This document shows positions 18,504-52,764 of a stretch of 59,304 nt of DNA, piece after piece (position 1 is the stretch's first letter; every line of letters starts with the position of its first letter). A program made the position numbers and the translations under genes. The DNA comes from a virus (taxonomy: Duplodnaviria > Caudoviricetes), in the IMG/VR virus record IMGVR_UViG_3300037264_003947, positions 1-59,304 of that record. One strand, given 5' to 3'. The notes below the pieces were generated by a model, which was given only the letters and a program-made list of their open reading frames with translations, made no database searches and was not told where the DNA came from.

Positions 18504-18511
18504 GAGAAAAC

Positions 18512-18573: not shown

Positions 18574-18592
18574 TTATTTAAGCAAAAAAAGT

Positions 18593-18759: not shown

Positions 18760-18774
18760 TAAAGTTTCAAAGAA

Positions 18775-18840: not shown

Positions 18841-18841
18841 A

Positions 18842-31443: not shown

Positions 31444-34125
31444 ATGTTTAGAGTATGGTCCGCTGGCGATGACTTAAAAAATGAAACCTTTTCCTCTGCT
31501 GATACAGCTAGACCTGGATATTATCTAGGTATTGAAGGATTAGAAGTAAGAGATAATGTCAGTAAGGTAGATCTAGGCAGACCCTTAAGAAATATTTGGG
31601 AAAATACACAACACTTAAGCGATTTTGATGATAGAATGTTCTATCATGTCAAGGGTGATAGTTCTGGCGTATTTAATAGATCGTTAGTCAATGGATTTTC
31701 TATCGGTGATACTGATATAGTAACCGTAACGGTAAATCCTGGAACTGGTGATACTATTAGGTTCTATGCTCGTCTAGGACCTGGAATTGCTTATCATAAT
31801 AAACATGTAGTTGTCAATAGACCTCAAACTCAAATAGCAGAAAGACAAATATCTAAAATACTTAAGCTTGATGACTGGAAAGATGAAGGAGTATCAATTA
31901 GATACTTCTTTAATACTGACATGTTTCAAGCGAAAATAACAAAGAGAAATACCAACGCCGTTCCAATAAGTTATTACTTTGTAGATCCTGCCTTCTATGG
32001 TGACAGCACAAAGTGGGGCGATAGTAGAGTTGGTTATTCTTCTTCATTAAAACTATTCGAAGCAATATACAATACCGCAATTTTCACTTCTAGCTGTAGG
32101 ACTTCATTAGGCGATAGCATCGACTTAATACAATGCGAACCAGTAGTAAACTTTAAGAAATCACAAATAGTTTTTGCTGGTGACACAATTTTCTGGGTAG
32201 TTAAGGCAAATGGAAGCGTGGTAGGAACAACTACTTTCCCCGCTACTACAGACCTTTGCCTATGGGCCACAAAAGTAAATATTACGGCACAAGCAGGAAC
32301 TACAGTAAATAAGGGTGACTCTAGAAAATTCATTCCTTTATACCACGATTTCGGTCAGCACCTATTCCTAAATGTTCCTAAAGAATGGGCAGATACAAAT
32401 ACTTTAAGTATGACTAGACCTTGGAGTGATACAAGAAATCACCCCTATACTTTTGTAACTAATAGAAATAGTTTCATTGTATTCTTAAGACAAACTGCTG
32501 GAGTTGGAACTAGTCCAATACTAGGATGGACAGAAGACAATGCCGTAGGAGTCACTCCAGCTAGATCTGGAGTTTTCTATGGAAACAAAGATTTAATCAT
32601 AAGTAGATGGACTAACGCAGGAGATACTCTAGGTAGAGCTTGGGCTTCTGTAATGAGTATGTCTGGTGACTCTTGGACTTTCTATGGCGATAAAGGCTTA
32701 AGAAATGGTAGTTTTTTTCCAATGGCTTCTTCAGGGCAAAATCTTGGAAGACCTTCAAATACTTGGAGAGTTTGGGGAGACTCTGGAATATTTACTAGAA
32801 GTTTAAGTATAGGCGATACTGTTTTTGTAAATACTGTTAAATCTAATAAATTAATAGGTGATACTGTTTTTGTAAATACTGTTAAAGCATTAAAGTTTGT
32901 AGGTGATACTGTTTTTGTAAATACTGTTAAAGCATTAAAGTTTGTAGGTGATACTGTTTTTGTAAATACTGTTAAAGCATTAAAGTTTGTAGGTGATACT
33001 GTTTTTGTAAATACTGTTAAATCTAATAAATTAATAGGTGATACTGTTTTTGTAAATACTGTTAAATCTAATAAATTAATAGGTGATACTGCTTTTGTAA
33101 ATACTGTTGCTGTTAAAAAACATTTAGCAGCAGACACTATCTTTAATTATGGAGGAGTTTATAGTACTTTTGCTGGACATAAATTAATAGGTGACACTGC
33201 TTTTGTAAATACTGTTAAAGCAAAGAAACTTATAAGCGATAGCATATTTACTGGAACATTAAAGACCGCCGGTTCTACAAATATAGGTACCACTTTAAAT
33301 GTAACAGGTCATACTATTTTAAATACTTTGGGGACAACAGGTGCTGCCACTGTTGGAACTACTTTAGGAGTAACAGGAGCTACTATACTTAGCTCTACTT
33401 TAGCTGTAAATGGTGATGAACTCACTAGTACATCAGCTTCATTTAATTTATTGAATTCTCCTACTACTATAACTATTGGATCTACCACTGGAACTACAAC
33501 TATAAGATCTAAAAGAACAGTTGTTGGAACTACTGATGGTGACTCCTTTATAGTAAGAGGTGGAATAGTAAGACTTGGTAGCGGTGACTCTAACGGAATA
33601 TTCATGTTAAGCAGAAGAATATCTGCTGGTGATACTGGAAAGAGAATAACTACTGCTGGTGGTGATACAGGCATTCTATTTAGAGGTTCTATAAACGCTT
33701 ATAAAGTTTATAACGCAGTATGGAATGACTACGCAGAAGCTTTCACCTTTGATCCAAAAGAAAAACATCTAGTAGCTGGATATGTTTATGCACAAGGTCC
33801 AGATGGAGCAGTAAGGGCTAGAAGAAGAGCAGATAAAGCAACACTAGGAGTTTTCTCTGATACTTACGCAATGCTACTTGGTTCTAGAGGTTGTATATCA
33901 GAAGATAAGAATGGAACTAAAATACCTATAGCTCTAGCTGGTAAGGTTCAAATTTATGTTAGAGGAAAATTAGGTATAGGCGATTTGTTAGTTACTGATA
34001 AAAATGGATTTGGTGTAAAGGCCAACTTCTTTGAGCGAATATTTAAATCAGATAGAATACTTGGTAAAGTTCTAGAAAATCATAATGGGAATAATCCTTC
34101 TAGAATATGGATGTTAGTGAGGTAA
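31444..34125 (+). CDS. Tail fibre/spike with C-terminal intramolecular chaperone-like domain
   Basis: Beta-rich G/T repeats; C-terminal NDYAEAF...PIALAGKV...GDLLVT...GKVLE. Confidence 0.75.
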   Translation: MFRVWSAGDDLKNETFSSADTARPGYYLGIEGLEVRDNVSKVDLGRPLRNIWENTQHLSDFDDRMFYHVKGDSSGVFNRSLVNGFSIGDTDIVTVTVNPGTGDTIRFYARLGPGIAYHNKHVVVNRPQTQIAERQISKILKLDDWKDEGVSIRYFFNTDMFQAKITKRNTNAVPISYYFVDPAFYGDSTKWGDSRVGYSSSLKLFEAIYNTAIFTSSCRTSLGDSIDLIQCEPVVNFKKSQIVFAGDTIFWVVKANGSVVGTTTFPATTDLCLWATKVNITAQAGTTVNKGDSRKFIPLYHDFGQHLFLNVPKEWADTNTLSMTRPWSDTRNHPYTFVTNRNSFIVFLRQTAGVGTSPILGWTEDNAVGVTPARSGVFYGNKDLIISRWTNAGDTLGRAWASVMSMSGDSWTFYGDKGLRNGSFFPMASSGQNLGRPSNTWRVWGDSGIFTRSLSIGDTVFVNTVKSNKLIGDTVFVNTVKALKFVGDTVFVNTVKALKFVGDTVFVNTVKALKFVGDTVFVNTVKSNKLIGDTVFVNTVKSNKLIGDTAFVNTVAVKKHLAADTIFNYGGVYSTFAGHKLIGDTAFVNTVKAKKLISDSIFTGTLKTAGSTNIGTTLNVTGHTILNTLGTTGAATVGTTLGVTGATILSSTLAVNGDELTSTSASFNLLNSPTTITIGSTTGTTTIRSKRTVVGTTDGDSFIVRGGIVRLGSGDSNGIFMLSRRISAGDTGKRITTAGGDTGILFRGSINAYKVYNAVWNDYAEAFTFDPKEKHLVAGYVYAQGPDGAVRARRRADKATLGVFSDTYAMLLGSRGCISEDKNGTKIPIALAGKVQIYVRGKLGIGDLLVTDKNGFGVKANFFERIFKSDRILGKVLENHNGNNPSRIWMLVR
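32812..33110 (+). repeat. Tandem 45-bp (15 aa) repeat, about 7 copies, one more at 33190
   Basis: GDTVFVNTVK(SNKLI/ALKFV) units start at 32812, 32857, 32902, 32947, 32992, 33037, 33082. Confidence 0.95.
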
Positions 34126-34128
34126 GCA

Positions 34129-34773
34129 ATGGCTAAAGAAAATAGAATTTATTTAAATAGTTATAGAAAACCCTTTTATTTCGACAAAACTGGTGAAACA
34201 AAAAAATTGCCTAGTTGGGAAATACTGGAAGAATTTTTACAGAATATTGTTTTTAAAAAAGAAAGTTCTGGAGACACTGATTTTCTAACAATAAATCATT
34301 TTCTCATTGATTTTATTCCAACTAGTATGCTTACTTGGGGAATGAAATATGTTTCTTCTAGCCCAAAACAATATAAAATAAATTTTGCTTTTTCTATGTA
34401 TAATCTAGATCAAGCAAGTTTAGCAAAAAGTTGGTTTGATTCCTTTAAGCCTTACTTAAAAGATAGAGCTTCATATTTAATTTCTGCTACTGATTTTACT
34501 ACAACTATAAATAATTATCTAGAAAGAAAAAAAGTGACTGGTGATATGGCTATAGCAGATTTTGAAGATATTATTTATGTAGATAATGATGATTCTAAAA
34601 CTTTATATGATAATGTAAAAGTTTTAATGGGAAAGTTTGATGAAATAATAATCATTTCAAACATTAAAACACTTGACTTAAACTTACTATATTCTAGTTC
34701 GGAAGATGATATAATCTCTTTCCCTACCAAGAAATTAAAACTCATAAATAAGTATGATTTGAAAATAATATAA
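34129..34773 (+). CDS. Hypothetical protein
   Basis: 214 aa, directly after the tail fibre. Confidence 0.65.
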   Translation: MAKENRIYLNSYRKPFYFDKTGETKKLPSWEILEEFLQNIVFKKESSGDTDFLTINHFLIDFIPTSMLTWGMKYVSSSPKQYKINFAFSMYNLDQASLAKSWFDSFKPYLKDRASYLISATDFTTTINNYLERKKVTGDMAIADFEDIIYVDNDDSKTLYDNVKVLMGKFDEIIIISNIKTLDLNLLYSSSEDDIISFPTKKLKLINKYDLKII

Positions 34774-34782
34774 GGCAAAATT

Positions 34783-35151
34783 ATGGCATATACTTGGATA
34801 GGCTCAGTAGTTCGTGGTGCTAAAATAACAAATGAACTCGTATCAGAAATGAGAGTGCATGGGGATACTATTGCCACATGGAACTTAGCAAGAAATCCAT
34901 CTCCTGCTGCTTGTACCTCATATAATAAATGGGTATATCCATTAGCTTCTGGAGCAGATTCATATATAGCTACATTCAGCCAAATATTTGATGAGCTTCA
35001 ATATAACTTAAATCATTGGAGAGTAAATAACTGGTGCAGAGGATATGCTGTAACAGCTCATGTAACTCAACATAGTAGTAAGCAACTATCTTATAACGCT
35101 ACACAATATTCTCCAGCTTGCAGTCAATGTGTAGCACAAGGATCAGGTTAA
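34783..35151 (+). CDS. Small protein with Cys-containing C-terminus, candidate rSAM substrate
   Basis: C-terminal HVTQHSSK..YNATQYSPACSQCVAQ periodic tail. Confidence 0.6.
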   Translation: MAYTWIGSVVRGAKITNELVSEMRVHGDTIATWNLARNPSPAACTSYNKWVYPLASGADSYIATFSQIFDELQYNLNHWRVNNWCRGYAVTAHVTQHSSKQLSYNATQYSPACSQCVAQGSG

Positions 35152-35152
35152 T

Positions 35153-35788
35153 ATGGCCAAATTTACTTCAAGTCAGGGAAATTTTGCTTGGACCACAAGT
35201 GGTGCTCCTCCAACTGGAGTTGATAGATCTAGAACAGAATTTAGTGCCTATATAACTGAAGTCAAGGCCAATTTTGACTGGTTACAAGATAATTTAGAAA
35301 GTTGTTGGGCTGAAAAAGTTACTAGATGTGCTACTAGATATGATACTGTATTAACTACTGCTTATGGAGAAAGACATACAACTGCTAATGATACACAATA
35401 TGATGTTCAGCATACTACCAAGTATAGTTCTAATAATAGCACTTATTGCAGTCTTCAAAATGCTTCAATAAACTGGTCAATAAATAGCACAAATCACTCT
35501 GCAATTAATGGAACTGATCGAAATGTAGATAATGTCGTTGTAGATTCTTCAGTCTATTTGACCAACAATGCTCCGCAAAATGGTTCCGTCTACTCCCCTT
35601 ATAATGCCTCACGTTGTACATCTTATAATTCCACAATTCATTCTTCTGTAAGATCTACGCAATACGGTAGCAATTGTTCTACTGTACAAACATCAGATCA
35701 TACTGGAAGAAATGGCTCTAACTATACAGGAAATAATGCCACAAATCACAATAGTGTAAATGCTAATTTAGATTGTCAAGTCGGTTAA
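35153..35788 (+). CDS. Asn/Ser/Thr-rich 4-residue-periodic protein, candidate rSAM substrate
   Basis: N/H/Y/C/D/R at every fourth position for about 150 aa. Confidence 0.7.
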   Translation: MAKFTSSQGNFAWTTSGAPPTGVDRSRTEFSAYITEVKANFDWLQDNLESCWAEKVTRCATRYDTVLTTAYGERHTTANDTQYDVQHTTKYSSNNSTYCSLQNASINWSINSTNHSAINGTDRNVDNVVVDSSVYLTNNAPQNGSVYSPYNASRCTSYNSTIHSSVRSTQYGSNCSTVQTSDHTGRNGSNYTGNNATNHNSVNANLDCQVG

Positions 35789-35798
35789 AAGGAATGTT

Positions 35799-37154
35799 AT
35801 GCATCAATTTATCTCAACAGAAGTGCCGCAAGCGTCGGTTTGTAATTTAGATTGCGTTTATTGTTATATACCCAAAAATAAACAACTAACAAAAATACAT
35901 AAAAAATGGGCAGAAAAAATTAGAGATGGCACTCACAATGAAGTAATGTCAGAATATTTTAATGGCAACTTACAGGCAATTAGTTTCTGGGGTGGCGAAC
36001 CAACCCTAGGCATGAACGATTTACAAAGAATAGATGACTTACTTGATTTCAACAAAAATTTAACTAACCTTTCTACTTCTACAAATTTTGCTAGAATAGA
36101 AAATTTAGAATTTTTAATAAAAAAATTAGATGATTACCAAAAAAGAACTGGGAGAAATCTTCATTTGGGTATACAGGTTTCTTTAGATGGAACCAAAGAA
36201 AACACTGAAAAAAATAGGGGAAAAGGAACTTACGATAAAGTAGTAAGTAATTTGCTAAGACTAAAAGAATTCTCTAAAGAGATAAATTTTTTGAAAGTTA
36301 GAATTCACATAAAGGCTACCAATACAGCAGAAGATTACGAAGGGTTTGCCAAAAATCCTCAAACTTTAAAAGATTTCCTAGATTCATTTAACTATATAAA
36401 TAACCTAATTTTATCCACACCTTTTCCAGAAAACTGGGATGTGTCTTTAAAAACTCTACCTACTTTATCGTTGCCAGGAGATTATACTAAAGAAGATGGA
36501 GAAAATTTTTATAAGTATCATGTAGAGCTTAAAAAATTATTAGATACTGACTATAAGAATTATGTCCAAGAAGATGACTATATATTTAGATTCAGAACAC
36601 TGTGGGCAACTCAATATGAATTGAATAGAAATAATTTCATATTTCAATGCTCGGCAGGAAATTGCCAATTACCCATAGATCCAGAAGCAATGGTTCATAT
36701 GTGTCATGGAAGTTTCTGGTTCAACCAAGAAAATTATTTAGAAGAAACAGAAAATTCGGCAGCTGGATGGTGTGAGGGTGAAAGAATAGTAGATTTTGAT
36801 GCCGATAAATTCTGGAATGTAACTAAATCCACTATGGTAGAATATAGAGATAAGTATAATTTTGCTAGATCCAAATATACACTACGATGTTTTAATGACA
36901 TGATAGATCATTATTTAGCAATTACTTACTCAACCATTTTAATGCTAGCCAAAGCGGGACAGATTAGTGAAATTTACAAAGATGATGATTGGGCTAAAAT
37001 GTTTGCTTATTTTTTGGTATTAAAATCTGGTTGCTGGATGAATGGTTTATTAACAACTGGATCAATTTTTGTAATGCCTTTAAGCATATATAGAATATAT
37101 GGAAATGGGACTTTTGAATTTATAGTTAGAGATTTTGCAAGTAAAATACTATGA
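35799..37154 (+). CDS. Radical SAM enzyme with partial SPASM/twitch region
   Basis: CNLDCVYC, FWGGEP, QVSLDG, CSAG...MCH. Confidence 0.9.
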   Translation: MHQFISTEVPQASVCNLDCVYCYIPKNKQLTKIHKKWAEKIRDGTHNEVMSEYFNGNLQAISFWGGEPTLGMNDLQRIDDLLDFNKNLTNLSTSTNFARIENLEFLIKKLDDYQKRTGRNLHLGIQVSLDGTKENTEKNRGKGTYDKVVSNLLRLKEFSKEINFLKVRIHIKATNTAEDYEGFAKNPQTLKDFLDSFNYINNLILSTPFPENWDVSLKTLPTLSLPGDYTKEDGENFYKYHVELKKLLDTDYKNYVQEDDYIFRFRTLWATQYELNRNNFIFQCSAGNCQLPIDPEAMVHMCHGSFWFNQENYLEETENSAAGWCEGERIVDFDADKFWNVTKSTMVEYRDKYNFARSKYTLRCFNDMIDHYLAITYSTILMLAKAGQISEIYKDDDWAKMFAYFLVLKSGCWMNGLLTTGSIFVMPLSIYRIYGNGTFEFIVRDFASKIL

Positions 37155-37357
37155 ACATAAAAGAAAAATTAATTGAAGACTGTAAAAATCTTATTATATT
37201 AAATAAACATCTAATGAATTTAATAGAGAATGAGTTAAGATTTAAGCCAGAGGTCGTTGATGCTCTTATAGAATTTTCAGATATTAGCAAAGAAGAAATG
37301 CCAAAACATACACTTCATAGCTTCTGGAAAGAAAGAATTACAAAACAAAAGATATGA
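37151..37357 (+). CDS. Small hypothetical protein between the rSAM genes
   Basis: 68 aa, ATGA-coupled on both sides. Confidence 0.6.
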   Translation: MNIKEKLIEDCKNLIILNKHLMNLIENELRFKPEVVDALIEFSDISKEEMPKHTLHSFWKERITKQKI

Positions 37358-38685
37358 AAAAAGAATATATAGATCAAAATAGAGAGTTATTTAAAAACTT
37401 TCTAGAGGCAACTTTTTTTAAAAATTGGAGAGAGTCAAGTAGAGATAAAATTGCAATAGAAAATTATCAATCTGTAGAAATGTCTATAGGTTATAAATGC
37501 GATCTTCACTGCAAGTATTGTTATTATAGCAGATATGGTAAAGAACTCTATCAAAACAAACCAGTCAAGGCAAACGACATATTAAAAAATACTGAAAAGT
37601 TAATGAACTTTTTCGTTAAAAATAATATGTGTGTAAAAATAGAACTTTTTTCTGGAGATCCTTTTAATCTTCCTTATGTTTGGGATTATTTTGATATTAT
37701 TCTAAAGTATTCAGAGATGATGCCAATTGAAAAAAGGCCAGGGTATCTTTCTATACCTACAAATCTTTCTTTTTTACGATCAGAAGATGATACAAAATTA
37801 AATAAGATAAAAGATTATATATTAAAATTTGAGAAAATAGATGTTCCGTTTTATTTATCTGGTTCTGTTGATGGTCCTTTCATGGATAAGTTTAATAGAC
37901 CTTCGATAAAACAATTTAATTATGAAAAAAATTTTTATGATAAAGTATTAAAGTATGGGAAAGAGATTCGTTATGGTTATCATCCAATGATATACTCTAA
38001 CAATATAGAAAACTGGATAGAAAACTTTCTCTGGTTTTATTATTTAACAGAAAACCTATATTTACTAGAAGTAAGAAATGCTGAATGGACCGAAGAACAA
38101 TGTGTTCAAATTTATTATTTAATGAAGTTTATAATTCATTTTCTCTATAATGCAAAAGATAAAGATATTAAAAAAATGAACGAAATTTTGCAAGCAAATA
38201 AAGGATACAATATTTTGATGAGTCCTTTTATGAGAACTGGGAGAGGTTTGGGTTGCTCAATGCAAAGTACTTTAAATTTTCAAATGAATGACCTAACTAT
38301 TGTTCCTTGCCATAGAACTTCTTATAATGAATTCGTCGCTGGTAGCATGATCCTAAATGATGATGGATCTTATGATTTTAATCCAAAAAATGTGGAATAT
38401 TATTTAGCAGAACAATCAACTCAAATAAATAGGACTTATCCATGTGTTTCTTGCTCTGTCAATGAAATGTGTAGTGGTGGATGTTTGGGTTCAAATTATG
38501 AATCAACGGGAGATCCTTTCGTTCATCATCCAAATATGTGCAGAATGGAACATTATAAAATAGCGGGAATAATACATGGGTTTGATGAAATTGGTTTATT
38601 GGACGAATTTATGCGTGGCCAGACTGAAAGAAAAAAATCACAAGTTCAATATGTTTTAAAGACTTTTGGAGAAAAAAATGGATAA
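37354..38685 (+). CDS. Radical SAM/SPASM peptide-maturase-like enzyme
   Basis: CDLHCKYC, FSGDP, SVDGP, SPASM GC...PCHR...CVSCSVNEMCSGGCLG...C. Confidence 0.92.
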   Translation: MKKEYIDQNRELFKNFLEATFFKNWRESSRDKIAIENYQSVEMSIGYKCDLHCKYCYYSRYGKELYQNKPVKANDILKNTEKLMNFFVKNNMCVKIELFSGDPFNLPYVWDYFDIILKYSEMMPIEKRPGYLSIPTNLSFLRSEDDTKLNKIKDYILKFEKIDVPFYLSGSVDGPFMDKFNRPSIKQFNYEKNFYDKVLKYGKEIRYGYHPMIYSNNIENWIENFLWFYYLTENLYLLEVRNAEWTEEQCVQIYYLMKFIIHFLYNAKDKDIKKMNEILQANKGYNILMSPFMRTGRGLGCSMQSTLNFQMNDLTIVPCHRTSYNEFVAGSMILNDDGSYDFNPKNVEYYLAEQSTQINRTYPCVSCSVNEMCSGGCLGSNYESTGDPFVHHPNMCRMEHYKIAGIIHGFDEIGLLDEFMRGQTERKKSQVQYVLKTFGEKNG

Positions 38686-39223
38686 AGATTTCAATTTAGT
38701 AGAAATAGAATTAAGAAAAGATTTTATTATAGTAGAACCTGATTTAGCATTTTTTACAAATGATAATAGTTTTCCAATGTTCTTAAAAGATTTCATGGAA
38801 AAATTATTTAACAACATTAAGGAAGCTATGGCCGATAAGGAAGTTTCCGAATTTAAAGATGTTAAAAATTGTTTGAAAAGATTTTTTCAATCAATTATTG
38901 ATGCCAGTAGTTTTAAATTGTTGGACTATAGAAGCATTTCCTTCTTAACCAATTTTTTACTTTTAATAAACAATTGGTTGTTAATGATAGAACAGGGAAA
39001 TCTTTTGCCATTTTTTGATTTATCTAAAGAAGAAGTTGATAGTCTCAAAAAAACTAGCGAAGATTTAACGGAAATAATTACTTTAAATTTGGATGTAGAA
39101 AATTTACACAATTTAACAAATAGATTAATGAAAAAAGCAGAACAAATTCTAGCATCAGTTCCATCTAACTTCAAAATAAGCGAACATTTTTTCAACGTCT
39201 TAAAGAAAGAAATAACTAAATGA
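38678..39223 (+). CDS. Hypothetical protein
   Basis: Helical ORF; ATG at 38678 after GGAG. Confidence 0.6.
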   Translation: MDKDFNLVEIELRKDFIIVEPDLAFFTNDNSFPMFLKDFMEKLFNNIKEAMADKEVSEFKDVKNCLKRFFQSIIDASSFKLLDYRSISFLTNFLLLINNWLLMIEQGNLLPFFDLSKEEVDSLKKTSEDLTEIITLNLDVENLHNLTNRLMKKAEQILASVPSNFKISEHFFNVLKKEITK

Positions 39224-40056
39224 CATTTATAAATAAAGAAAAGTTGCCAACAACAAATTTTTTATATTCCCTTAAGCATTTAGCAATTCCTAATAAAGTC
39301 ATTTTGACTAAATTGGAAATTAAAGATGTTGAATCATTAGAGACGCTAATATTTTTTAATCCTAATTACGATGATTTAAAATTAACTGAAGATCTAAACA
39401 AAAAAATAATATTGTTTTTTTCTTATATTGATGAAGAACTACTTCCACTTCTAGGACATCAGAACATATTAAAGATAATAGTTTTTGATGATTTGGATGC
39501 TTTATTTCTTACAAAAAATCATATAAGAAATTTTGAATTGGCCTTTCCTTCTATAGATAAAATAGATACTACAGATGTGTATAACTATTTTTCTATCTTT
39601 AATGATATACAAGATGTTGATGTAAGAAAAATAATTGAAGCCAAAGCATTATGTAATGTAAGTTATTTTGGTTATAAACATATAAACAAGACACTAGACT
39701 TCAATAAGTTAAAAGACATAATGTATGCAGGAATTAAGATAGTTCCTTTTGCAATATTTGACATGCACGAAAAAATAGCTAGATTTCAATATACAATAGA
39801 TTTTTCAAACAAGCATTTCCCAATAGTTTCATTTTACTCTGCTCTTTGCAACAAAATTCCAATCCATTATGGTAATAGATACTTTAAATGGATGGCTTCT
39901 GAAACTCAAAATCCATCTGCAGAAACTCTTGGCAAGATATTAGCAGATGAGAATTTTAGAAAAAACATCATAGAAAAACAACAAGCAAGAATGTCAGATG
40001 TTTTTAATAATAGACGAAAAGTGGAAGAAATTTTAAATGAAATTAAACCAATGTAA
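39220..40056 (+). CDS. Possible divergent GT-B glycosyltransferase
   Basis: C-terminal LGKILADENFRKNIIEK helix pattern; adjacent to a GT4-like gene; weak. Confidence 0.4.
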   Translation: MTFINKEKLPTTNFLYSLKHLAIPNKVILTKLEIKDVESLETLIFFNPNYDDLKLTEDLNKKIILFFSYIDEELLPLLGHQNILKIIVFDDLDALFLTKNHIRNFELAFPSIDKIDTTDVYNYFSIFNDIQDVDVRKIIEAKALCNVSYFGYKHINKTLDFNKLKDIMYAGIKIVPFAIFDMHEKIARFQYTIDFSNKHFPIVSFYSALCNKIPIHYGNRYFKWMASETQNPSAETLGKILADENFRKNIIEKQQARMSDVFNNRRKVEEILNEIKPM

Positions 40057-40879
40057 CGGACCAGTAAATAAATACTACGAACAATTATTAAATAATGGAA
40101 TCATTAAAGAAAGCGATAATGTTTTAGTAGATCCGCGTAACGAAAAGGAATTTCCTGATATTAACGATTTAGTTATCTTACAACAAGGAGATCTTTCTTG
40201 GAATGTAAAAAATTTTTCAAAAATAAAGTATATATTTACTCCATCTCTTTATCTATATGAAAAATATAGTTATAGTAAAAAAATATTTTTAATACCTTTT
40301 GCAATTGAGCCTGAATATAAAAAAATAAGTAAATGGTCTGATAGAGAAAACGCCCTTTATTATCACGGAAGAATAATTTCTGAAAAATTAGGAATAATTG
40401 GCTTAACGAAATTATGTTCAGAAGGAATAAAAATAGTTCTACGAGGACCAATTTGTAAAGAATACTGGACCGATAAAGATATTGAGCGTCCAGAATTTAT
40501 TTCCTATAAAGAAAAAGTCTCTAAACTCAATATAGAATTTTTACCACCCACAGATGATAAAGAAGTAATAATAAACGATCTTAACAAATACAAATTTTAT
40601 TTCACTCTATCTAATGGGGAATGCTTTAATCTCGCTCTACAAGAAGCAATAGCTTGCGGAACCATACCTTTAGTAAAACCTAATTTTGCGTATTGGTGGG
40701 CAGAACACTTAATACTACAATTTGAAAATACCAATGAACTAATTAAAAAATTCAATGGTCTAAAAGATATGGACATGGACGAATATTCTAGTCTACTTTC
40801 AAAAGAATTGCATAAAAGATTTAATTATGAATCTTTAATTAAATCGTATGAGTATCAGAAAAAAGAATTATTTCCTTAA
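40037..40879 (+). CDS. Glycosyltransferase, GT4-like
   Basis: YHGRIISEK and S..ECFNLALQEAIACG (E-x7-E). Confidence 0.8.
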   Translation: MKLNQCNGPVNKYYEQLLNNGIIKESDNVLVDPRNEKEFPDINDLVILQQGDLSWNVKNFSKIKYIFTPSLYLYEKYSYSKKIFLIPFAIEPEYKKISKWSDRENALYYHGRIISEKLGIIGLTKLCSEGIKIVLRGPICKEYWTDKDIERPEFISYKEKVSKLNIEFLPPTDDKEVIINDLNKYKFYFTLSNGECFNLALQEAIACGTIPLVKPNFAYWWAEHLILQFENTNELIKKFNGLKDMDMDEYSSLLSKELHKRFNYESLIKSYEYQKKELFP

Positions 40880-42116
40880 TTAAAATATCTATTTCTTCTA
40901 TCGTATTAAATCTATTTAAAGAAATTCTAACACTTTTAAATGCCTCTTCATCTGTAAGATCTAAAGCCTTTAATACATAAGAAGGTTTCTTTTCGTTAGC
41001 ATTACAGGCAGAACCAGCAGAAATAAAAATGCCTTTATTAGATAAATGTTCTATCAACTTCTCGCCATATATTTCTTTAAATGTTATAGAAGATGTATTT
41101 ACCAAACGAGGAGAGTTCTTACAATTAATTGTTGCTCCAAACTTAACTAATTGATCTTCCATATAGTTTCTTAAAGCTTCTATTTTTGGAAGATCGCTTT
41201 CTACCAAATTATCAATTGCCTCTCCCATTCCTACAATTAAAGGCATATTATAAGTTCCAGCCCTCTTATCCCATTCTTGATGCCCGCCTTGAATAAAAGA
41301 TTTAATTGTATTCATGTCTTTAATATATAAAACTGACACTCCAACAGGACCACCAAATTTATGAGCAGTAAAAGTAGCAAAATCAAGATTTCCTACCTTT
41401 ACATCTTTCATCTTTCCTAAACATTGGCACATATCAGAGTGAACTAGCGCATTAGGATTAGCAAACTTAATCTCATTAACATAATCATGAATAGGAAGTA
41501 TGCTACCAGTTTCATTATTGGCAGTCATTATACTTACTAGGCAAGGTTCTTTTGAAAGTTCTATGACTTTTTCTAGATCTATATAGCCGTTGTTAAATAC
41601 ACCTACTTCAAAAGCATTCATTTTTTTGGAAGAATTAATGATGCAACTATGTTCAATAGAACTTATAATGACCTTATTAAAAGTTCCTTTAATTACCATG
41701 TTATTAGATTCTGATCCAGAAGCGGTAAAAATAAGATTAGATGGTTTACAACCAATCTTATTTGCTATTTTAGCTCTAGCTTGTTCTAGATAAGCTCTAG
41801 TTCTTTCTCCAGCTTCATGTCTAGAAGAAGGGTTGCCAACTACATCATACATTTCTCTTATTTTATTTGCCACTTTAGGCAACACTGGATGCGTAGCATT
41901 GTTGTCTAAATAAATAAATTGATTAAATTTCTTACTAGTTAGCTCGTGCATTCTTTCACTTTTAGGTGATGGACATAAAGGACTATAAGAAGCATAATCA
42001 GAACTACAAGAAGAAAGCATTTCTTTTCTAATTTCTTCTCTTATTTTTTCTCTATCAAAATCTAAAATTGGTAAATCAATTTTTTTTGTTTCTTGTGTTT
42101 GCCATTCATATCTCAT
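40839..42116 (-). CDS. iscS: Cysteine desulfurase (IscS/NifS class I)
   Basis: IYLDNNAT, GNPSS.H, ANNETG, TAHKFGG (PLP Lys), RAGTYN, SAGSAC. Confidence 0.92.
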   Translation of the reverse strand: MRYEWQTQETKKIDLPILDFDREKIREEIRKEMLSSCSSDYASYSPLCPSPKSERMHELTSKKFNQFIYLDNNATHPVLPKVANKIREMYDVVGNPSSRHEAGERTRAYLEQARAKIANKIGCKPSNLIFTASGSESNNMVIKGTFNKVIISSIEHSCIINSSKKMNAFEVGVFNNGYIDLEKVIELSKEPCLVSIMTANNETGSILPIHDYVNEIKFANPNALVHSDMCQCLGKMKDVKVGNLDFATFTAHKFGGPVGVSVLYIKDMNTIKSFIQGGHQEWDKRAGTYNMPLIVGMGEAIDNLVESDLPKIEALRNYMEDQLVKFGATINCKNSPRLVNTSSITFKEIYGEKLIEHLSNKGIFISAGSACNANEKKPSYVLKALDLTDEEAFKSVRISLNRFNTIEEIDILIKEIILFSDTHTI

Positions 42117-42151: not shown

Positions 42152-42604
42152 ATGAATATACGCGAACTCATTGAAGCAACCGCCCAAGAAATGTATCGCC
42201 AGCTAGCCCTAAAGTTCCACCCTGATCGTGGTGGAGACCAAGAGAAAATGGCTAAGTTAAATGCTGCTAAAGACGAAGGCAATTGGGATAAAATAAAAGC
42301 AATGTATCATATGGTCGTCGAACCAGACCCAGATGAAGATGAGCCAGTAGAAAAACCACAGAAAGTATCACAACTTTACAAACTATACAAGCAATGGGCA
42401 GAGCAAATAGAAGAAGAACTCGCACAACGCGGCAGTCATGGAATAAAAATAACTATAGAACTACAAGGAACTAGTGCTAATGCTTGGGTATTTTGGTTAA
42501 TTAATGGCGTAAAAAGAAGTGTCTATATTCCAAAGATAGAACGCTTTAGAAGAAAAAAGGACTTCGCACTGGAAGTCCTTCGTAAATTCCAACAAAATAA
42601 ATAA
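42152..42604 (+). CDS. J-domain (DnaJ-type) protein
   Basis: YRQLALKFHPDRGGD.EKMAKLNAA with HPD. Confidence 0.85.
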   Translation: MNIRELIEATAQEMYRQLALKFHPDRGGDQEKMAKLNAAKDEGNWDKIKAMYHMVVEPDPDEDEPVEKPQKVSQLYKLYKQWAEQIEEELAQRGSHGIKITIELQGTSANAWVFWLINGVKRSVYIPKIERFRRKKDFALEVLRKFQQNK

Positions 42605-43213
42605 TTACACCTTCGATACTAATTTACACATTTCAATAAAATAATCTTGGCTAAAATCATTTTTCATTATATTAACATTTTTATGAACTAATTGAACATT
42701 GCCCTCAATATATCCTTTTGAACTATCTATTCTATCAAGTGAGGCAGAACACATTAACCATCTAGAATTTTTTTCATTTTTAAAGTCTATTGGCAAATTT
42801 GTCAAGGCACATTTTTTATTCTGTTTATTCCACAAATCATAAATATATTCTTTCGTTATTTTAAATTCTTTTTTTCCTTTTCTTTGAAATTTTCTAATCC
42901 AACTTCCCGGAATTTCTTCTATTCCTTTCCAGTTTGGATTCTTATCACCTTTTTTATTTATGACAGAACACTCATAACAACTTTTCGATTTATTTAAAAG
43001 ATTATAACAATTAACATCAACAATTTTTCCGCATTTACATCTACATTTAACATAAAAAATATTTATTTCATAAGAAATTTTACCTTTATCTTTTTTTGTT
43101 TTAAATTGTTTTTGTTTCTTTTTTGGAAAAGGTATCTCTAAAACTTCCCAGTCTCCATATTTATCTCCTATTTTTATTCTTTCTAGATATGTAGATTTCA
43201 TACTACCCCCCAA
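42605..43213 (-). CDS. HNH homing endonuclease next to RNR
   Basis: CRCKCG...SCYEC; SLDRIDSSKGYIEGNVQLVH..VN.MK. Confidence 0.85.
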   Translation of the reverse strand: MGGSMKSTYLERIKIGDKYGDWEVLEIPFPKKKQKQFKTKKDKGKISYEINIFYVKCRCKCGKIVDVNCYNLLNKSKSCYECSVINKKGDKNPNWKGIEEIPGSWIRKFQRKGKKEFKITKEYIYDLWNKQNKKCALTNLPIDFKNEKNSRWLMCSASLDRIDSSKGYIEGNVQLVHKNVNIMKNDFSQDYFIEMCKLVSKV

Positions 43214-47994: not shown

Positions 47995-50900
47995 CTAACC
48001 TTTTCTAGTTTCTGTCATTTGGAACTTGTCGAACATGAATTTATACTTTGGTTCATTTAGCGTCCAAGAACCACCATTTAATCTCATTGCTCCTTTATCG
48101 CTGTCTCCATAACCTCCAAGCAAAACTGGACTTAAAATTATGGTTGTCAAACCAGAGTCGCCAGCTATTCTAGCATGTCCTACGGAATCAGCGTAATAAG
48201 TTCCTTCTGTGCTATCACCTGTATTTATGATTTGAAGAGTGTCACCTTTTCTTAATCCAGTGAAAAGTCGTGATCCATCATAAATAACAATTCTAGAGAA
48301 TGTAGGAGCACCAGCATCTGAAGAATAATACTTAATTCTTCTTACTTGCTCGAAGTCCAAGTAACCTTTGAATAAATTGACTTGGTCTATTGCTGATATT
48401 GGTGGCTTTACAGTTATTTCTGTAGTATCTCCATACCAAGTTACAGCATCAACCATTCTGGTTACATTATTTACTTCGTGCTTAGTATCGTATAAAGTCA
48501 CATAATCATCTTTAACTAATCTACTAAACTTTCTAATGCTATCTCCTACTGCAAGAGTATCTCCATTGTTTACAAATCTTCTATGATCTAGAACTCTTAT
48601 CACTCCCTGACCTGAACCATTGTCTGCATCTATGTAGAAAACTTGTCCTGTGTTATATCCCCATGTAGTATCAGCATTTGCAGTTATGTTAAAATCTAAA
48701 TAATACTTTTCTTGTGGTCTTATATCCCAAGATCTTAATGGATGATTAGCTCCCAAAGTTATAAAATTTCCAATAACCTCTTCTACTGGATTATAAACAG
48801 GGACTATCCAAGCTCCATGTCTCCAATAAACTTTGCTATCAGCAATCTTACTATCACCCACTACAGCTATTCCAGAATTTACTGCTGATTTTCTATAATA
48901 AATTACCCAACTATCTCCAGTTGGATAAGTATCTGATCTATTAGTAGGCAAAGAGTAATGTCCAGGAGTTAAATAACGAACTGCATCAACAAAGAGGAAC
49001 ATATCTCTTCTTCTTAAGTTCCAGTTTTGAGCAGACAAACCACTATCGCCAGAAGTTTTTATAAGAACTCTCATGTTCTCATAAATTTGTTCATCGTTCC
49101 AACTTGGATTAACTGCTTTCAACTTAGAAAATACTGAAGTTGAAACCTCTGGTGCGGTGTATGATTCTCGTGTATCTGTGTGGTCTCCAGAAATCCAGTG
49201 TCCTGTTTTTCCTAACCTGGTAGGAACTGTCCAATAACTGCTATCTCCCCAATGGAAGTTATTAGTACTTCTAGTATTATAAAGTAAGGCATCAGTTATT
49301 AAACCCTCAAATACATAGTTCGTTGCGATATAAGGGGTGCTACCTATTGAAAGGAATGAGTTCTTGGCCCAAGTATTAGCAGTTCCAGCGTAAGTAGAAT
49401 CTCCGTGTTGAATAGTTCCATTTACATAAAACTCTGCATAGTTAGCTAACACATTCCAAGTTGCTTTTAAATGAGTCCATTCTCTTAAAGCAGCGTTAGT
49501 AGTATAAGCAGTTGTGCAAGAAACATTTCTATAGTTTGAAGCATCCTTCATTATGGAGAATAACCACTTATCTGTTGCCTGACTATATTTTAAAACTATA
49601 TGAACAGAGTCACCAGTGTAATCAGACATTACAAATTTATCTACTGTTGTATTATAGTTGAAGTAAGGTCTTACCCAGCACTCAAATGTTCCACTATCGC
49701 CAACAGTTAGAGGATATGCTAAAGAATCTCCTCCTCTTAAAGAAGGTTTAGCGAAAGGTCTAGCAAAATCTACACTCTTCTCTATTTGAACATTATAAAC
49801 TTTAAAAGTGTCTCCACTTGTTAAGTTGGAAGAGTTTCCCTTTATCCACCAACCAAAACCATTGTAGGTTGCTTTTGAAGAAACTGTTGGTTCAATGAAA
49901 GTCCAAGTGTTTGCATAAACTATATTGGTATCACCAAATAAAGTATCGCCCGCGCGCGAGAAGAAAGGAGTTACTTTTATATCTCTAGTGGATTTAATCC
50001 ACATAGTAGTATAGTAATGCCCTGTATCTCCAGGAGATTGGTTGGTATCCCCAATTATAGTTCTATAAATATCAGTTCCAGTGCTCCAAGAGAAAACTGA
50101 ATCTCCTATTGTGACATCATAAACTCTTTTATAATTAGTATTCCAAGCTGGCCAAACATTCCATTTAGAAGTATCGGCCAAGTTTTCTGTTGCTATTTTA
50201 TTTATTATAGGATTCCAGAAACCAGTAACACCTTTTCCAGTCCATCGAACTCTTGTATTTGTTACAGCAGTGCCATAGGTAGGTAATTCAAAAATTGGAT
50301 TAGAGTTTCTTGTTGGTATTTTATTATCAGATGTTTTATTCTTAGTATCATCTAATCTTATTAACTCACTTCCACCAGGAATAGTTCTGCTAGCCTCAAA
50401 CAAGTTTCCTTCCCAATATCTTCTATCTGGATAATAACCAGAATAAAGGTGCATCATTCTATCTGGGCCACCTATATAAAGCGTTCCACTTGGACTTGCT
50501 TTGCTGCTTCCGTGCATTCCTACATTCGTGTCACCTTTCAAGTAAATAGTTACTTGCTTTGTAGAAGGGTTATAGGCAGGGGCGACAATATCAGCAGCAA
50601 GATAATAAGTTCCATCATTGGCATCTGCACTAGTTCCAGCAATTGTAATTCTATCTATTACATATTTACCAACTAAACTATCGCCAGTTGGATTTAGAAG
50701 CTCCATTAAAGCAGTTTTTGCAGATCCAGAAGATATGTTATTTACTACTATTTTTCCTCTTGGATAAACCGTATCCCCAGCTCTTGGATAAACCGTATCC
50801 CCAGCTCTAGCATCAATAGATTGAATGGCATAACTTCTATTGTAAAAAGATAGTAAAGGCCCAGTCCTATTCATATAAATAGGATCTGCTCTAGGTTCAT

Positions 50901-52764
50901 CTAATAAAGTCCAGGCATATTTTGCTGTCTCTATGGAAGGTCTGGCGCTGAACAATATGTTTCTTTCTACGAAAATTGGTGACAAGAACTCTGCGTAGAA
51001 TTCTATAGCATCCAAGTCCGCTGCACTTAAGTCAGCTTCCTGTCCAGTTCCAAGTGAAGTAATACTATACTGAATTACATTTGTTTTAAAGTAAGTGTAA
51101 GTATCTCCTAGTGGAGCGAAAAGATGTTTTATCTCATATGCACTTAACTCTCTAGTATATAATCTAGCTTCCTCCATTGAACCAATCCATCCATAACCTT
51201 TTATTGGTGTTGAATAATTTCCCAAATAAATAAATCCAGTGGGAAAAGTAGTTGTAATGGTTGCCGTTTCATTTACAATTATTACAGAATTTTTATAAAA
51301 TACTACTTTTTTTGTATTGCTATTAAAAGTAAATGCATAGAAACGAAGCTTATCATCAAAAGTTCCTACTGGTATATCAATATCTTCGTGACTAGTATTT
51401 GTATTAAGCCTAATTATACCACTTCCATCTGTATTGGCCCAAATACAGAAACCATCTGTATTAGATCTTCCAAATGTAAATGCTACACAAGAATCTCCAG
51501 CTAGTTTAGTTGCCCAGAAAGTAAAAGTTAATTCTTTAATGCCGAATCTATAATCTGGATCAATTATGGATTTGACATATCTAATTACTTGTTTATCAGC
51601 AAAATATATTTGTAAAGTGCTTGAATAACCAGATCTAGTCCACTCTGTATTATAAAGAGTCATTCTATTTCTATTTGTTGATAGATCTAGGATAGTATCG
51701 CCAATTCCCTCATTGAAATTCCAATGTCCTTGTAATCCATAAGAAGAATTTATTGAAACATTTCCAGTTAAATGATAACTAGAGTAACCATTAGAATCTC
51801 CAGTGGTATAAGTAGAAGCCAATCTATCAAAAGCATTTAAATCCATTGGCTCTGTTATAGAATCCTTTGAAACAGAGTAAGTTCTAGACATTCCAGTTGG
51901 AATAGCATCCGTTGGTTTATCTGGTGTTAAATAAAATAAATAAGAATCCTTATTTGTAGATGCGGTATAAAGATTGGCATTTATTGAAGTATCGCCAAAC
52001 CTTCTGTCAAACCAGAACTCTTGTGGTATTATTTCAAAACCAAGTAAGTTAAAGAATAGTTCGAACGAATAGTTTGTTCCTTTTATTCTATATATCTCAA
52101 TAATATTTTTAAGTAACTCTCTAAATGAAGAGTTAGTTAATAATTGATAGTCGTCTCTTTCATAACCTATTATTTGAGCTAGATAATTTAAATATTCCGT
52201 TGGTATTTTATCTAAATCTACTATGTTATAAAGATTATCTATAATCATAGTAAATTTATCAAACTCTCTCATGAAAGCTTCTTGGTACATTTTAGTTTTT
52301 TCTTCAGAGTTAATCATATCATAATCAAACTCTGGCAAGAAATACTTATATTTCTGTCTAAAGAAAGTTTTTACTGCAGAGTATTTAAAGGAATACACCA
52401 TCCAGTGAGCTAGAGCACTATCAGTAAAACCACCACTAGGAACAAAATATCCATAAGGAGTAGAGATTGGATTAATTACAATGGCCCAAATAGCACTACA
52501 TATTGTTGCGTTGCCAGAAAGATAGATGGCAGTGTTAGAAGTAAAAGTATCAACGTTTGCTAAATAATATTCTGCCAAAGCTGAGTAACCAGTTATCGTT
52601 AAATAGTAACTTCCAATATAGGTGTCACCAGTAAATTTTGGAGCTATATCACCAGAAGAATATTGTGGAACTAATGTATAACCCAGATTTTTAAATTCTG
52701 TATTTAAATCAGAGTCATTCTTTAGTATTGATACTATTTGATCTACTTCAAATTTTTCTGCCAT
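47995..52764 (-). CDS. Large baseplate/tail protein with a tail-protein-I-like segment and LamG-like domains
   Basis: YLNYLAQIIG...IYRIKGT..SFELFF; GHWNFNEG.G...RLYTRELS. Confidence 0.75.
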   Translation of the reverse strand: MAEKFEVDQIVSILKNDSDLNTEFKNLGYTLVPQYSSGDIAPKFTGDTYIGSYYLTITGYSALAEYYLANVDTFTSNTAIYLSGNATICSAIWAIVINPISTPYGYFVPSGGFTDSALAHWMVYSFKYSAVKTFFRQKYKYFLPEFDYDMINSEEKTKMYQEAFMREFDKFTMIIDNLYNIVDLDKIPTEYLNYLAQIIGYERDDYQLLTNSSFRELLKNIIEIYRIKGTNYSFELFFNLLGFEIIPQEFWFDRRFGDTSINANLYTASTNKDSYLFYLTPDKPTDAIPTGMSRTYSVSKDSITEPMDLNAFDRLASTYTTGDSNGYSSYHLTGNVSINSSYGLQGHWNFNEGIGDTILDLSTNRNRMTLYNTEWTRSGYSSTLQIYFADKQVIRYVKSIIDPDYRFGIKELTFTFWATKLAGDSCVAFTFGRSNTDGFCIWANTDGSGIIRLNTNTSHEDIDIPVGTFDDKLRFYAFTFNSNTKKVVFYKNSVIIVNETATITTTFPTGFIYLGNYSTPIKGYGWIGSMEEARLYTRELSAYEIKHLFAPLGDTYTYFKTNVIQYSITSLGTGQEADLSAADLDAIEFYAEFLSPIFVERNILFSARPSIETAKYAWTLLDEPRADPIYMNRTGPLLSFYNRSYAIQSIDARAGDTVYPRAGDTVYPRGKIVVNNISSGSAKTALMELLNPTGDSLVGKYVIDRITIAGTSADANDGTYYLAADIVAPAYNPSTKQVTIYLKGDTNVGMHGSSKASPSGTLYIGGPDRMMHLYSGYYPDRRYWEGNLFEASRTIPGGSELIRLDDTKNKTSDNKIPTRNSNPIFELPTYGTAVTNTRVRWTGKGVTGFWNPIINKIATENLADTSKWNVWPAWNTNYKRVYDVTIGDSVFSWSTGTDIYRTIIGDTNQSPGDTGHYYTTMWIKSTRDIKVTPFFSRAGDTLFGDTNIVYANTWTFIEPTVSSKATYNGFGWWIKGNSSNLTSGDTFKVYNVQIEKSVDFARPFAKPSLRGGDSLAYPLTVGDSGTFECWVRPYFNYNTTVDKFVMSDYTGDSVHIVLKYSQATDKWLFSIMKDASNYRNVSCTTAYTTNAALREWTHLKATWNVLANYAEFYVNGTIQHGDSTYAGTANTWAKNSFLSIGSTPYIATNYVFEGLITDALLYNTRSTNNFHWGDSSYWTVPTRLGKTGHWISGDHTDTRESYTAPEVSTSVFSKLKAVNPSWNDEQIYENMRVLIKTSGDSGLSAQNWNLRRRDMFLFVDAVRYLTPGHYSLPTNRSDTYPTGDSWVIYYRKSAVNSGIAVVGDSKIADSKVYWRHGAWIVPVYNPVEEVIGNFITLGANHPLRSWDIRPQEKYYLDFNITANADTTWGYNTGQVFYIDADNGSGQGVIRVLDHRRFVNNGDTLAVGDSIRKFSRLVKDDYVTLYDTKHEVNNVTRMVDAVTWYGDTTEITVKPPISAIDQVNLFKGYLDFEQVRRIKYYSSDAGAPTFSRIVIYDGSRLFTGLRKGDTLQIINTGDSTEGTYYADSVGHARIAGDSGLTTIILSPVLLGGYGDSDKGAMRLNGGSWTLNEPKYKFMFDKFQMTETRKG
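50757..50808 (-). repeat. 24-bp direct repeat (RAGDTVYP x2)
   Basis: CTCTTGGATAAACCGTATCCCCAG twice on the plus strand. Confidence 0.9.

Follow-up and report, generated by a model that had tools for sequence, protein, structure and literature searches.

The virus record IMGVR_UViG_3300037264_003947 of IMG/VR, referred to here as the window, is a linear sequence of 59,304 bases that was analysed at its whole length; it is estimated to be about 29% complete, its G+C content is about 33%, and among sequencing runs a sediment metagenome is one probable source, next to one run with a small share and none that holds RNA. It carries, downstream of a gene for a tail-fibre-like protein, a cassette encoding two radical S-adenosyl methionine (SAM) enzymes, rSAM1 and rSAM2, accompanied by proteins that were named after their length in amino acids (p122, p211, p68, p185, p278, and GT280; Table 1). 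All open reading frames (ORFs) from 31444 to 40879 lie on the + strand with gaps of 1-10 nt or overlaps of 4-20 nt, and the gene at 40839-42116 (- strand) converges on this run with a 41-nt overlap. The tightly coupled arrangement described in a sequence-only reading of this DNA, made without database searches, was therefore borne out.

Five genes of this run, i.e., those of p122 and p211 (family F1), rSAM1, rSAM2, and p185 (family F2), can be regarded on comparative grounds as a conserved core, whose order recurs in dozens of loci and thus goes beyond chance. Single-sequence locus searches of viral contigs gave no match and an alignment-based search was needed; with an alignment of 31 rSAM2 sequences (A1), 53 loci were obtained, among which L002-L025 and L041 (E-value of 1e-26 or better) were taken as the viral family, and the other 28 (4e-9 to 2e-4) were left out as distant radical SAM enzymes. 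A scan of genome contigs yielded 25 further loci, all of them on metagenome-assembled genome (MAG) contigs of many phyla and none from an isolate. As some loci are duplicated between the collections (L080=L004, L081=L005, L084=L007, L087=L006, L090=L010, with contigs of equal size also in the pairs L085/L056 and L067/L008), the counts are not fully independent. The rSAM1 gene stands directly upstream of rSAM2 in 21 of the 24 viral loci L002-L025, the three misses being located at contig edges (L009 and L017) or fragmented (L023), and in all 25 MAG loci. F2 follows rSAM2 in 23/25 MAG loci, and its cluster covers 12 viral loci. An F1 pair is present in 15/25 MAG loci; of the ten without an F1 match, six (L060, L065, L068, L072, L074, and L078) end at or just upstream of rSAM1, L077 is fragmented, and L073, L076, and L079 carry another repeat protein. 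Among the 25 viral loci and the window, the F1 BLAST cluster covers 13 of 26. F1 genes are placed mostly upstream of the rSAM genes, downstream of them in L002, L003, L014, and L075, and between them in L011, which argues for a functional link rather than an inherited order. In a reciprocal search seeded on the long-type F1 alone (A5), rSAM genes were recovered in 10 of 11 loci, and both of them in nine; the contig of L083 ends right after the F1 pair, and L088 opens with a SPASM-like ORF that is truncated at its 5' end and immediately precedes the pair.

Table 1. Genes of the cassette and its borders in the window
Feature	Position	Strand	Remarks
Tail-fibre-like protein, 893 aa	31444..34125	+	15-aa tandem repeats; C-terminal domain recurring just upstream of the cassette elsewhere
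214-aa protein, function not assigned, non-periodic	34129..34773	+	No match in family libraries
p122, F1 'long-type', 122 aa	34783..35151	+	Conserved N-terminal domain, junction Cys, short Ser/Thr/His/Tyr-rich tail
p211, F1 'short-type' repeat protein, 211 aa	35153..35788	+	About 19 octads; candidate main substrate
rSAM1, 451 aa, twitch-like	35799..37154	+	PF04055; one probable auxiliary cluster
p68, 68 aa, between both rSAMs	37151..37357	+	Homologue at the same position in L055
rSAM2, 443 aa, radical SAM/SPASM	37354..38685	+	TIGR04085; Cys pattern
p185 (F2), 185 aa, helical accessory protein	38666..39223	+	Matched by the F2 profile
p278, 278 aa, lineage-specific	39220..40056	+	Homologue in L055 alone
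GT280, 280 aa, GT4-like glycosyltransferase	40037..40879	+	Weak GT4 matches; L055 homologue
NifS/IscS-like cysteine desulfurase, 425 aa	40839..42116	-	PF00266, TIGR03402

The whole cassette of the window is repeated in its closest relative, the MAG contig L055 (11.9 kb), in the following order: the C-terminal domain of the fibre, a 224-aa ORF, a long-type F1, a 558-aa protein combining Laminin_G_3 with a short-type F1, rSAM1 (43% identity), the p68 homologue, rSAM2 (49%), F2 (33%), the p278 homologue (23%), and a glycosyltransferase (47%). It follows that p68, p278, and the glycosyltransferase are additions at the level of the lineage, p68 being specific to that of the window and L055. Beyond the glycosyltransferase, the region 9724-11756 of L055 contains a 390-aa ORF with a Cys-x6-Cys-x2-Cys motif (by eye, possibly Fe-S or rSAM-like) and a 290-aa Cys-rich ORF, neither of which has a counterpart in the window. 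The 214-aa ORF of the window, overlooked in the sequence-only reading, has no family match in Pfam, NCBIfam, PHROGs or PADLOC, shows no detectable periodicity, and has no significant similarity to its 224-aa positional analogue in L055.

Two further loci deserve a comment. Translation of L012 (7000-12500) with genetic code table 11 splits the cassette genes into many small ORFs, and under table 4 (TGA=Trp) two F1-sized ORFs, rSAMs of 458 and 459 aa, and a 158-aa F2-sized ORF are restored (reading TAG as Gln fails), which suggests that this phage is TGA-recoded; the breakage under table 11 was seen also in L041 and probably affects L013, L020, L021, L023, and L077. In L002 (5344-6286), a 56-aa duplicate of the rSAM1 N-terminus and a 205-aa ORF, which by eye we take to resemble a GIY-YIG homing endonuclease, stand just before the full rSAM1, and a 227-aa ORF lies between rSAM1 and rSAM2.

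By profile comparison, p122 and p211 can be assigned to one previously unnamed family. Pairwise similarity of the two is undetectable and their kinship is visible via the family profile alone: the F1 hidden Markov model (HMM), made without the window sequences, matched p122 with an E-value of 4.8e-6 and p211 with 2.3e-3. In BLAST comparisons, p122 is similar to the 152-aa protein of L055 (1.2e-8) and p211 to the 558-aa protein (8e-6). As shown by neighbour clustering, F1 proteins are 100-260 aa long, usually occur as a tandem pair, and consist of a conserved N-terminal domain followed by repeats rich in Ser, Thr, Asn, Asp, Gly, Tyr, and His. The N-terminal domain has an invariant Met-x-x-x-Trp motif, to which the longer type adds a second helix and an invariant Cys (Met, Trp, and Cys are all invariant across 18 sequences). 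The profile of this domain matched 1,023 cluster representatives at an E-value of up to 0.001 (198 at up to 1e-10); PDB sequence searches with it and with the fibre C-terminus returned nothing significant. The nearest Atlas clusters of p122 are unnamed and viral. An Atlas lead (0.76) from p122 to a Cxxx-repeat family of rSAM targets was judged too weak and was left unused.

The repeats of p211 have a period of 8 residues (z=7.0 against shuffles), and those of p122 a weak period of 4 (z=2.6), so that of the two small proteins earlier called periodic only p211 fully deserves the name. A period of 8, with harmonics at 4 and 12, is common to p211 and most F1 proteins (z of 3-9), and was found also in the long repeat proteins of L022 and L025. 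Each octad of p211 consists of two tetrads of the form (Asn/Tyr/Cys/His)-(small)-(Ser/Thr)-x. Motif enrichment was tested on 20 repeat regions with 500 shuffles: [HYWFN]-x-[ST] was observed 338 times against 194 expected (z=14), [HYWF]-x-[ST] 225 times against 128 (z=11.1), and Asn-x-[ST] 112 times against 65, and for none of the three did any of the 500 shuffles reach as high a count. For p211, 25 [HYWFN]-x-[ST] motifs were found against 12.1 expected, and within the window alone [HYWF]-x-[ST] occurs 12 times against 6.4. It should be stressed that the mirror pattern [ST]-x-[HYWF] is enriched to an equal degree; the signal is therefore an alternation of period 4, which fits the face of a beta-strand as well and is no proof of a modification motif. 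One F1 repeat region gave a sub-threshold match to the C-terminal beta-helix of T4 gp5 (E-value of 0.0058), treated as a lead only. As the F1 repeats are poor in Cys, thioether chemistry would be possible at most at the single junction Cys of the long-type proteins. No DNA-level tandem repeat was found beneath p211. Among other observations on this family, the repeats of the F1 proteins encoded in L088 (695-2858) are very regular, with units of 24 residues (3 x 8), and the second of these proteins is fused to Gly_rich_2 (PF21722, E-value of 2.6e-15); in p211, encoded in the same operon as the GT4-like gene, sequon-like Asn-x-Ser/Thr triplets number 15, whereas shuffles predict 6.9, an excess seen also in the F1 of L002 (glycosyltransferase-linked) and absent in the F1 of L010.

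The radical SAM and radical SAM/SPASM assignments made from the sequence alone were confirmed by family models. The rSAM1 protein belongs to the radical SAM superfamily according to PF04055 (39.1 bits, cut-off 29.5), and its C15, C19, and C22, as well as C284, C302, and C412, are invariant in 17 sequences, the latter three being compatible with one auxiliary cluster. Its best NCBIfam match is the twitch-domain model NF033640 (55.7 bits, below the cut-off of 170), and its AlphaFold2 model (predicted local distance difference test, pLDDT, of 84) has anSME, ChlB, and then viperin-like enzymes as the nearest solved folds. In rSAM2, TIGR04085 (SPASM) was matched with 28.7 bits against a cut-off of 27. 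The hallmark of this domain is a seven-Cys pattern including CX2CX5CX3C, and in the 31-sequence alignment both the CxxxCxxC cysteines (C49, C53, and C56) and the seven SPASM cysteines (C301, C319, C364, C367, C373, C377, and C396, which include CX2CX5CX3C) are invariant. The Pfam score of rSAM2 for PF04055 is 23.4 bits, under 29.5, and its placement in the superfamily is based on the match of its fold to CteB and anSME; the top solved folds of the AlphaFold2 model (pLDDT of 91) are CteB, anSME, ChlB, and SuiB. DesII and viperin-like enzymes occupy lower ranks of the fold lists. At E-values of up to 0.001, 1,798 candidates yielded 349 homologues of rSAM2; of these, 120 were listed, with lengths of 425-479 aa except for one of 339 aa, and the only names given are generic radical SAM/SPASM ones. 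PADLOC gave generic viperin-model matches for the two enzymes and nothing else. With protein or peptide modifiers as nearest solved folds, the assignment of both enzymes to peptide/protein-modifying types is supported by comparative genomics, though unproven. A modelled complex of rSAM1, rSAM2, and p211(1-100) scored 0.00 with the partner fold uncertain, and was counted neither for nor against an interaction.

The F2 proteins, which the sequence-only reading had overlooked as a possible helper, are helical, about 160 aa long, and encoded directly after rSAM2. An F2 HMM made without the window sequences matched p185 (E-value of 1.3e-4), which shares 33% identity with its L055 counterpart (E-value of 4e-25). 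For p185, the ATG at 38678 is the likelier start; its Atlas entry begins at residue 5, and an Atlas search with it gave chance-level matches only. The 68-aa ORF proposed earlier is real, as a homologue lies at the same place between the two rSAM genes of L055 (E-value of 2e-6); in most other loci rSAM1 and rSAM2 abut or overlap.

The gene-neighbourhood survey of phage contigs consistently linked the rSAM pair to repeat proteins inside tail modules. In the window, baseplate-type genes were recognised (PHROG baseplate wedge on 52769-56191 and Tail_P2_I on 47995-52764), in L004 a tape-measure gene stands two genes upstream of the cassette, and in L011 a collagen-like tail-fibre gene precedes it. 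The 893-aa protein has a marginal PHROG tail fibre match (E-value of 0.0078), which is weaker than had been claimed for it. Its C-terminal region matches cassette-adjoining ORFs of L006, L014, L015, L025, L048, L055, L056, L075, L084-L087, and L089, and this domain recurs directly before F1 in many loci. Some F1 proteins are fused to Laminin_G_3, galactose-binding-like/DUF5000 or Gly_rich_2 domains. Given the tail-module position of the cassette and these fusions to lectin-like and fibre domains, the F1 products are probably parts of a tail appendage or adhesin, and it is from the same context that we infer their location in the virion. Within the fibre gene itself, a 45-bp tandem repeat (32809-33108; 6.7 copies, 94% matches) underlies the 15-aa protein repeats, and a long reverse-strand ORF (32682-33137) is probably an artefact of this repeat.

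A kinship of the cassette with the His-Xaa-Ser (HXS) system, likewise overlooked before, was revealed by three contigs from candidate-phyla MAGs. In L073, L076, and L079, the 6.6 kb that precede rSAM1 contain no F1; the gene next to rSAM1 on its upstream side encodes instead a protein whose N-terminus is conserved and basic, and which also has a hydrophobic stretch and long runs of His-x-Ser. In L076 this protein matches HxsA4 (101 bits, cut-off 55), and those of L073 (55.6 bits) and L079 (27 bits) remain under the HxsA3 cut-off of 65. In L073 (514 bits) and L076 (476 bits), the only two scanned, the repeat protein is preceded by an HxsB above the cut-off of 370; L076 has, after F2, two further ORFs that are HxsC4/HxsC-like, under cut-off. 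These variant loci (L076, 4185-11737; L073, 3873-9852; L079, 5928-9789) have the order HxsB (seen in L073 and L076), HxsA3/A4-type repeat protein, rSAM1, rSAM2, and F2, and their contigs may be cellular or viral. A quick maximum-likelihood tree with an arbitrary root was built from 44 rSAM2 sequences, i.e., the window and 43 distinct sequences remaining from 50 BLAST matches (at least 380 aligned residues, fewer than 520 aa). The enzymes of the three contigs nest among the F1-linked ones, with L073 and L079 in a starred group together with L084-L087. The window pairs with L055 (100% support), and the loci with period-5 and Phe-rich repeats (L016, L018, L019, L022, and L025) form a separate starred clade.

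According to the accessible text of its description (PMC13128918), HXS is an anti-phage system in which HxsB, HxsC, and HxsD mature HxsA, including a change of +8 Da on a Ser-His-Arg-Ser-Ser motif, and the matured HxsA, which requires a signal peptide and a peptidoglycan-binding domain, blocks phage DNA entry from the periplasm. The same text presents it as the first radical SAM modification of a protein effector in phage defence, and phage-borne versions are not mentioned in that part of the source. The cassette resembles HXS in having two adjacent rSAM genes and a small accessory protein beside a protein with tandem His-x-Ser-type repeats, and its rSAM1-rSAM2-F2 trio is embedded in the Hxs-type loci described above. 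There are differences as well. Neither rSAM1 nor rSAM2 is HxsB or HxsC: the best window-wide scores for TIGR03978 (HxsB, cut-off 370) and TIGR03977 (HxsC, cut-off 267.9) were 31.4 and 28.6 bits, both from rSAM1. No NCBIfam model, HxsA-type and HxsD included, matched p122, p211, p68 or p185 (the last being F2), and the F1 proteins of L003 and L088 gave no NCBIfam match either (HxsA models included). F1 proteins have another N-terminal domain, with no signal peptide by eye and no peptidoglycan-binding match, and repeats of the (His/Tyr/Asn)-x-(Ser/Thr) type with period 4/8. Finally, the cassette lies in a phage tail module, and HXS in a bacterial defence locus.

Two accessory functions put forward in the sequence-only reading as parts of the system fared less well. 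A glycosyltransferase is present in a minority of loci, GT280-like genes being found only in the window, L055, L002, L003, L010/L090, L071, and L089 (in the last between two rSAM-like genes). The GT4-like call can be kept with a reservation: GT280 itself scores under the cut-offs (PF00534, 14.7 bits against 26.4; all GT4 families below cut-off), and the homologous enzyme of L003 passes PF00534 (33.1 against 26.4). GT280 clusters by BLAST with the glycosyltransferases of L002, L003, and L010, and its 47% identity to the L055 enzyme refers to a protein of 404 aa. The second gene described as GT-like, p278, had no glycosyltransferase signal, nor any other match, in Pfam, NCBIfam, PHROGs or PADLOC, and its similarity to the L055 protein has an E-value of 7e-12. 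The product of 40839-42116 was correctly recognised as IscS-like and is, by family assignment, a cysteine desulfurase of the NifS/IscS type (PF00266, 184 bits; TIGR03402, 282 bits, under the equivalog cut-off of 530; PADLOC SspA and DndA models, about 300 bits), in whose translation His-Lys and Ser-Ala-Gly-Ser-Ala-Cys are presumably the pyridoxal phosphate lysine and the active-site cysteine loop. No homologue of it occurs in any of the related loci searched (viral, MAG, and F1-seeded), and its matches in the deposited phage collection were unannotated records and uninformative; as the system's own sulfur supply it would be a local convenience at best.

Adjoining the NifS-like gene and divergent from it, a 150-aa J-domain ORF lies at 42152-42604 (+) (DnaJ PF00226, E-value of 2.6e-4, under cut-off; His-Pro-Asp motif). 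Such a neighbourhood of J-protein and cysteine desulfurase is reminiscent of the HscB/IscS pairing in Fe-S assembly. The next ORF (42605-43213, -; 202 aa, no Pfam match), which by eye we take to resemble an HNH endonuclease, separates it from a gene of a class II ribonucleotide reductase. Elsewhere in the window, seven tRNA genes are located at 11770-18912 (-): Arg-TCT, Gln-CTG, Gln-TTG, Lys-TTT, Val-TAC, Arg-ACG, and Gly-GCC.

Among characterised enzymes, those forming three-residue cyclophanes (triceptides; ChlB, MicB) offer a chemical parallel. In the accessible part of PMC12912966, ChlB is described as a synthase of multiple cyclophanes, minviopeptin is documented to carry a His-Ala-Ser cyclophane, and His-x-Ser and aromatic-x-X motifs are given as known radical SAM cyclophane sites. 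Triceptide substrates carry several aromatic/His-x-X motifs, which are enriched in the F1 regions, both rSAMs have ChlB among their top structural matches, and cyclophane maturase models are among their NCBIfam matches. However, the substrates known so far are short peptides of the leader-core type, which undergo cleavage and release, whereas here proteins of 120-560 aa with dozens of motifs would be concerned; moreover, the two enzymes of the cassette are always paired, Asn often replaces the aromatic residue, and family scores are far under cut-offs (YhhB, AmcB, FxsB, GrrM, and XyeB models, 18-42 bits against 310-450), which leaves them outside the characterised cyclophane maturases. With anSME and the sactipeptide/ranthipeptide maturases (CteB, PapB), rSAM2 shares the SPASM fold with two auxiliary clusters, and these enzymes supply its top fold matches, yet its score for PapB, the best NCBIfam match, is 55.6 bits against a cut-off of 340, and the F1 repeats are, as said, Cys-poor. 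A different kind of parallel is the enzymatic decoration of virions, known from phage-encoded glycosylation of capsid or tail proteins; here too, phage enzymes would alter the phage's own structural proteins, and a GT4-like gene is in the operon, but no report of radical SAM chemistry on virion proteins was found in print.

Taken together, the evidence slightly favours the view that the two rSAMs modify p211 and p122 after translation. The observations are explained most economically if rSAM1, rSAM2, and F2 constitute a maturation machine for proteins with (His/Tyr/Asn)-x-(Ser/Thr) repeats, a trio that serves the tail-module F1 in phages and His-Xaa-Ser proteins in some candidate-phyla genomes. 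In such a scheme, F1 would be recognised via its conserved N-terminal domain, possibly with F2 as adaptor or chaperone, and both rSAMs would act repeatedly on the tetrads of the repeat region. As to the chemistry, our leading guess is side-chain cross-linking, most likely as in three-residue cyclophanes or His-Xaa-Ser proteins; epimerisation or Ser oxidation would come next. Cross-links would stiffen a polar, low-complexity tail and make it a stable rod, and in the lineage of the window and L055, p68, p278, and the GT4-like enzyme would probably add a step, e.g., glycosylation of the Ser/Thr/Asn-rich repeats. Chemistry of the type known from RiPPs (peptides synthesised by the ribosome that are then modified post-translationally), acting on virion appendages as the sequence-only reading proposed, is thus consistent with the link of protein-modifying enzyme types to tail-module repeat proteins, and remains a proposal.

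Several observations speak against this interpretation. Repeats with period 4/8 and polar composition could reflect a beta-helical fibre without any modification; p211 has mostly Asn, which is non-aromatic, at the first position of its motif and is therefore a poorer fit for cyclophanes; and in some related loci (L018, L019, and L024) the repeats are of the period-5 type Ser-x-Gly-Thr-x. Neither Pfam nor PHROG gave a meaningful match for F1 or F2, and the NCBIfam matches of rSAM1 and rSAM2 to named RiPP maturases are all far under their cut-offs, so the chemistry is not readable from homology. Among 50,697 phage records on deposit, searched at the DNA and protein level with the region and with three different rSAM2 sequences, there was no member of the family. 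Moreover, genes standing beside tail-fibre genes are often unrelated cargo.

This last point is also one ground for regarding the cassette as a phage-borne conflict system of the His-Xaa-Ser kind, whose matured repeats would act in the infected cell, either by keeping out the DNA of competing phages (superinfection exclusion) or by countering or mimicking host HxsA. The bacterial system, in which, as far as the accessible text of PMC13128918 goes, two adjacent rSAMs and a small protein mature a DNA-entry-blocking His-x-Ser effector, and the trio found inside three Hxs-type loci both speak for it; we nevertheless hold it unlikely, since F1 has by eye no signal peptide and gave no match to a peptidoglycan-binding family, both of which features HxsA needs, some F1 proteins are fused to lectin-like and fibre-type domains, the window is without HxsB, HxsC, and HxsD above cut-off, and the cassette stays inside the tail modules of very different phages. 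It seems still less probable that F1 proteins are ordinary, unmodified fibre proteins and that the rSAMs have another protein as their target, e.g., the 893-aa fibre or one of the host envelope. In many loci, the C-terminal domain of the fibre is indeed encoded just upstream of the module, and anSME, a top structural match for both rSAMs, modifies whole folded proteins; however, many loci with F1 and the rSAMs lack this domain, the trio of the Hxs-type loci adjoins a repeat protein and no fibre, and the enzyme clades track the type of repeat, with the period-5 and Phe-rich period-8 loci in their own starred clade.

Least of all, and in our opinion very improbably, the rSAMs might make an unusual sugar or nucleotide for the neighbouring glycosyltransferase, or modify DNA with NifS as a partner. 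A glycosyltransferase in the operon of the window and in six other distinct loci, its place between the rSAM-like genes of L089, the presence of DesII and viperin-like enzymes in the fold lists, and the resemblance of NifS to DndA and SspA could be read in this way. Against it, most loci lack a glycosyltransferase and all related loci lack NifS, the top fold matches are protein or peptide modifiers, and rSAM2 has a full SPASM domain with its seven-Cys pattern; the full SPASM domain is commonest in peptide- and protein-modifying radical SAM enzymes.

Building on the modification of F1 by the two rSAMs, a wider and considerably more tentative proposal can be made: many uncultivated phages may staple the polar repeat rods of their tail appendages with two rSAMs, using machinery common to the His-Xaa-Ser variant, so that phage and host would deploy the same chemistry on opposite sides of DNA entry, the phage version possibly aiding passage through the envelope or evading HxsA.

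To our knowledge, nearly all work on radical SAM maturation has dealt with small secreted peptides, and no description of phage rSAM pairs with repeat proteins or tail fibres was found in the literature. The maturation of repeat proteins by radical SAM enzymes is known in kind; the phage cassette described here, absent from the deposited phage genomes searched, is new. With F1 and F2, two previously unannotated protein families were defined, the five-gene set is experimentally tractable, and the cassette offers a link, in evolutionary terms, from a defence system to structural genes of phages. If the proposed modification is true, virion proteins would for the first time be known to undergo a radical, RiPP-like modification after translation, cross-linked repeat rods might be of interest as stable protein materials, and a widespread, tail-linked phage cassette would extend radical SAM protein chemistry to virus particles.

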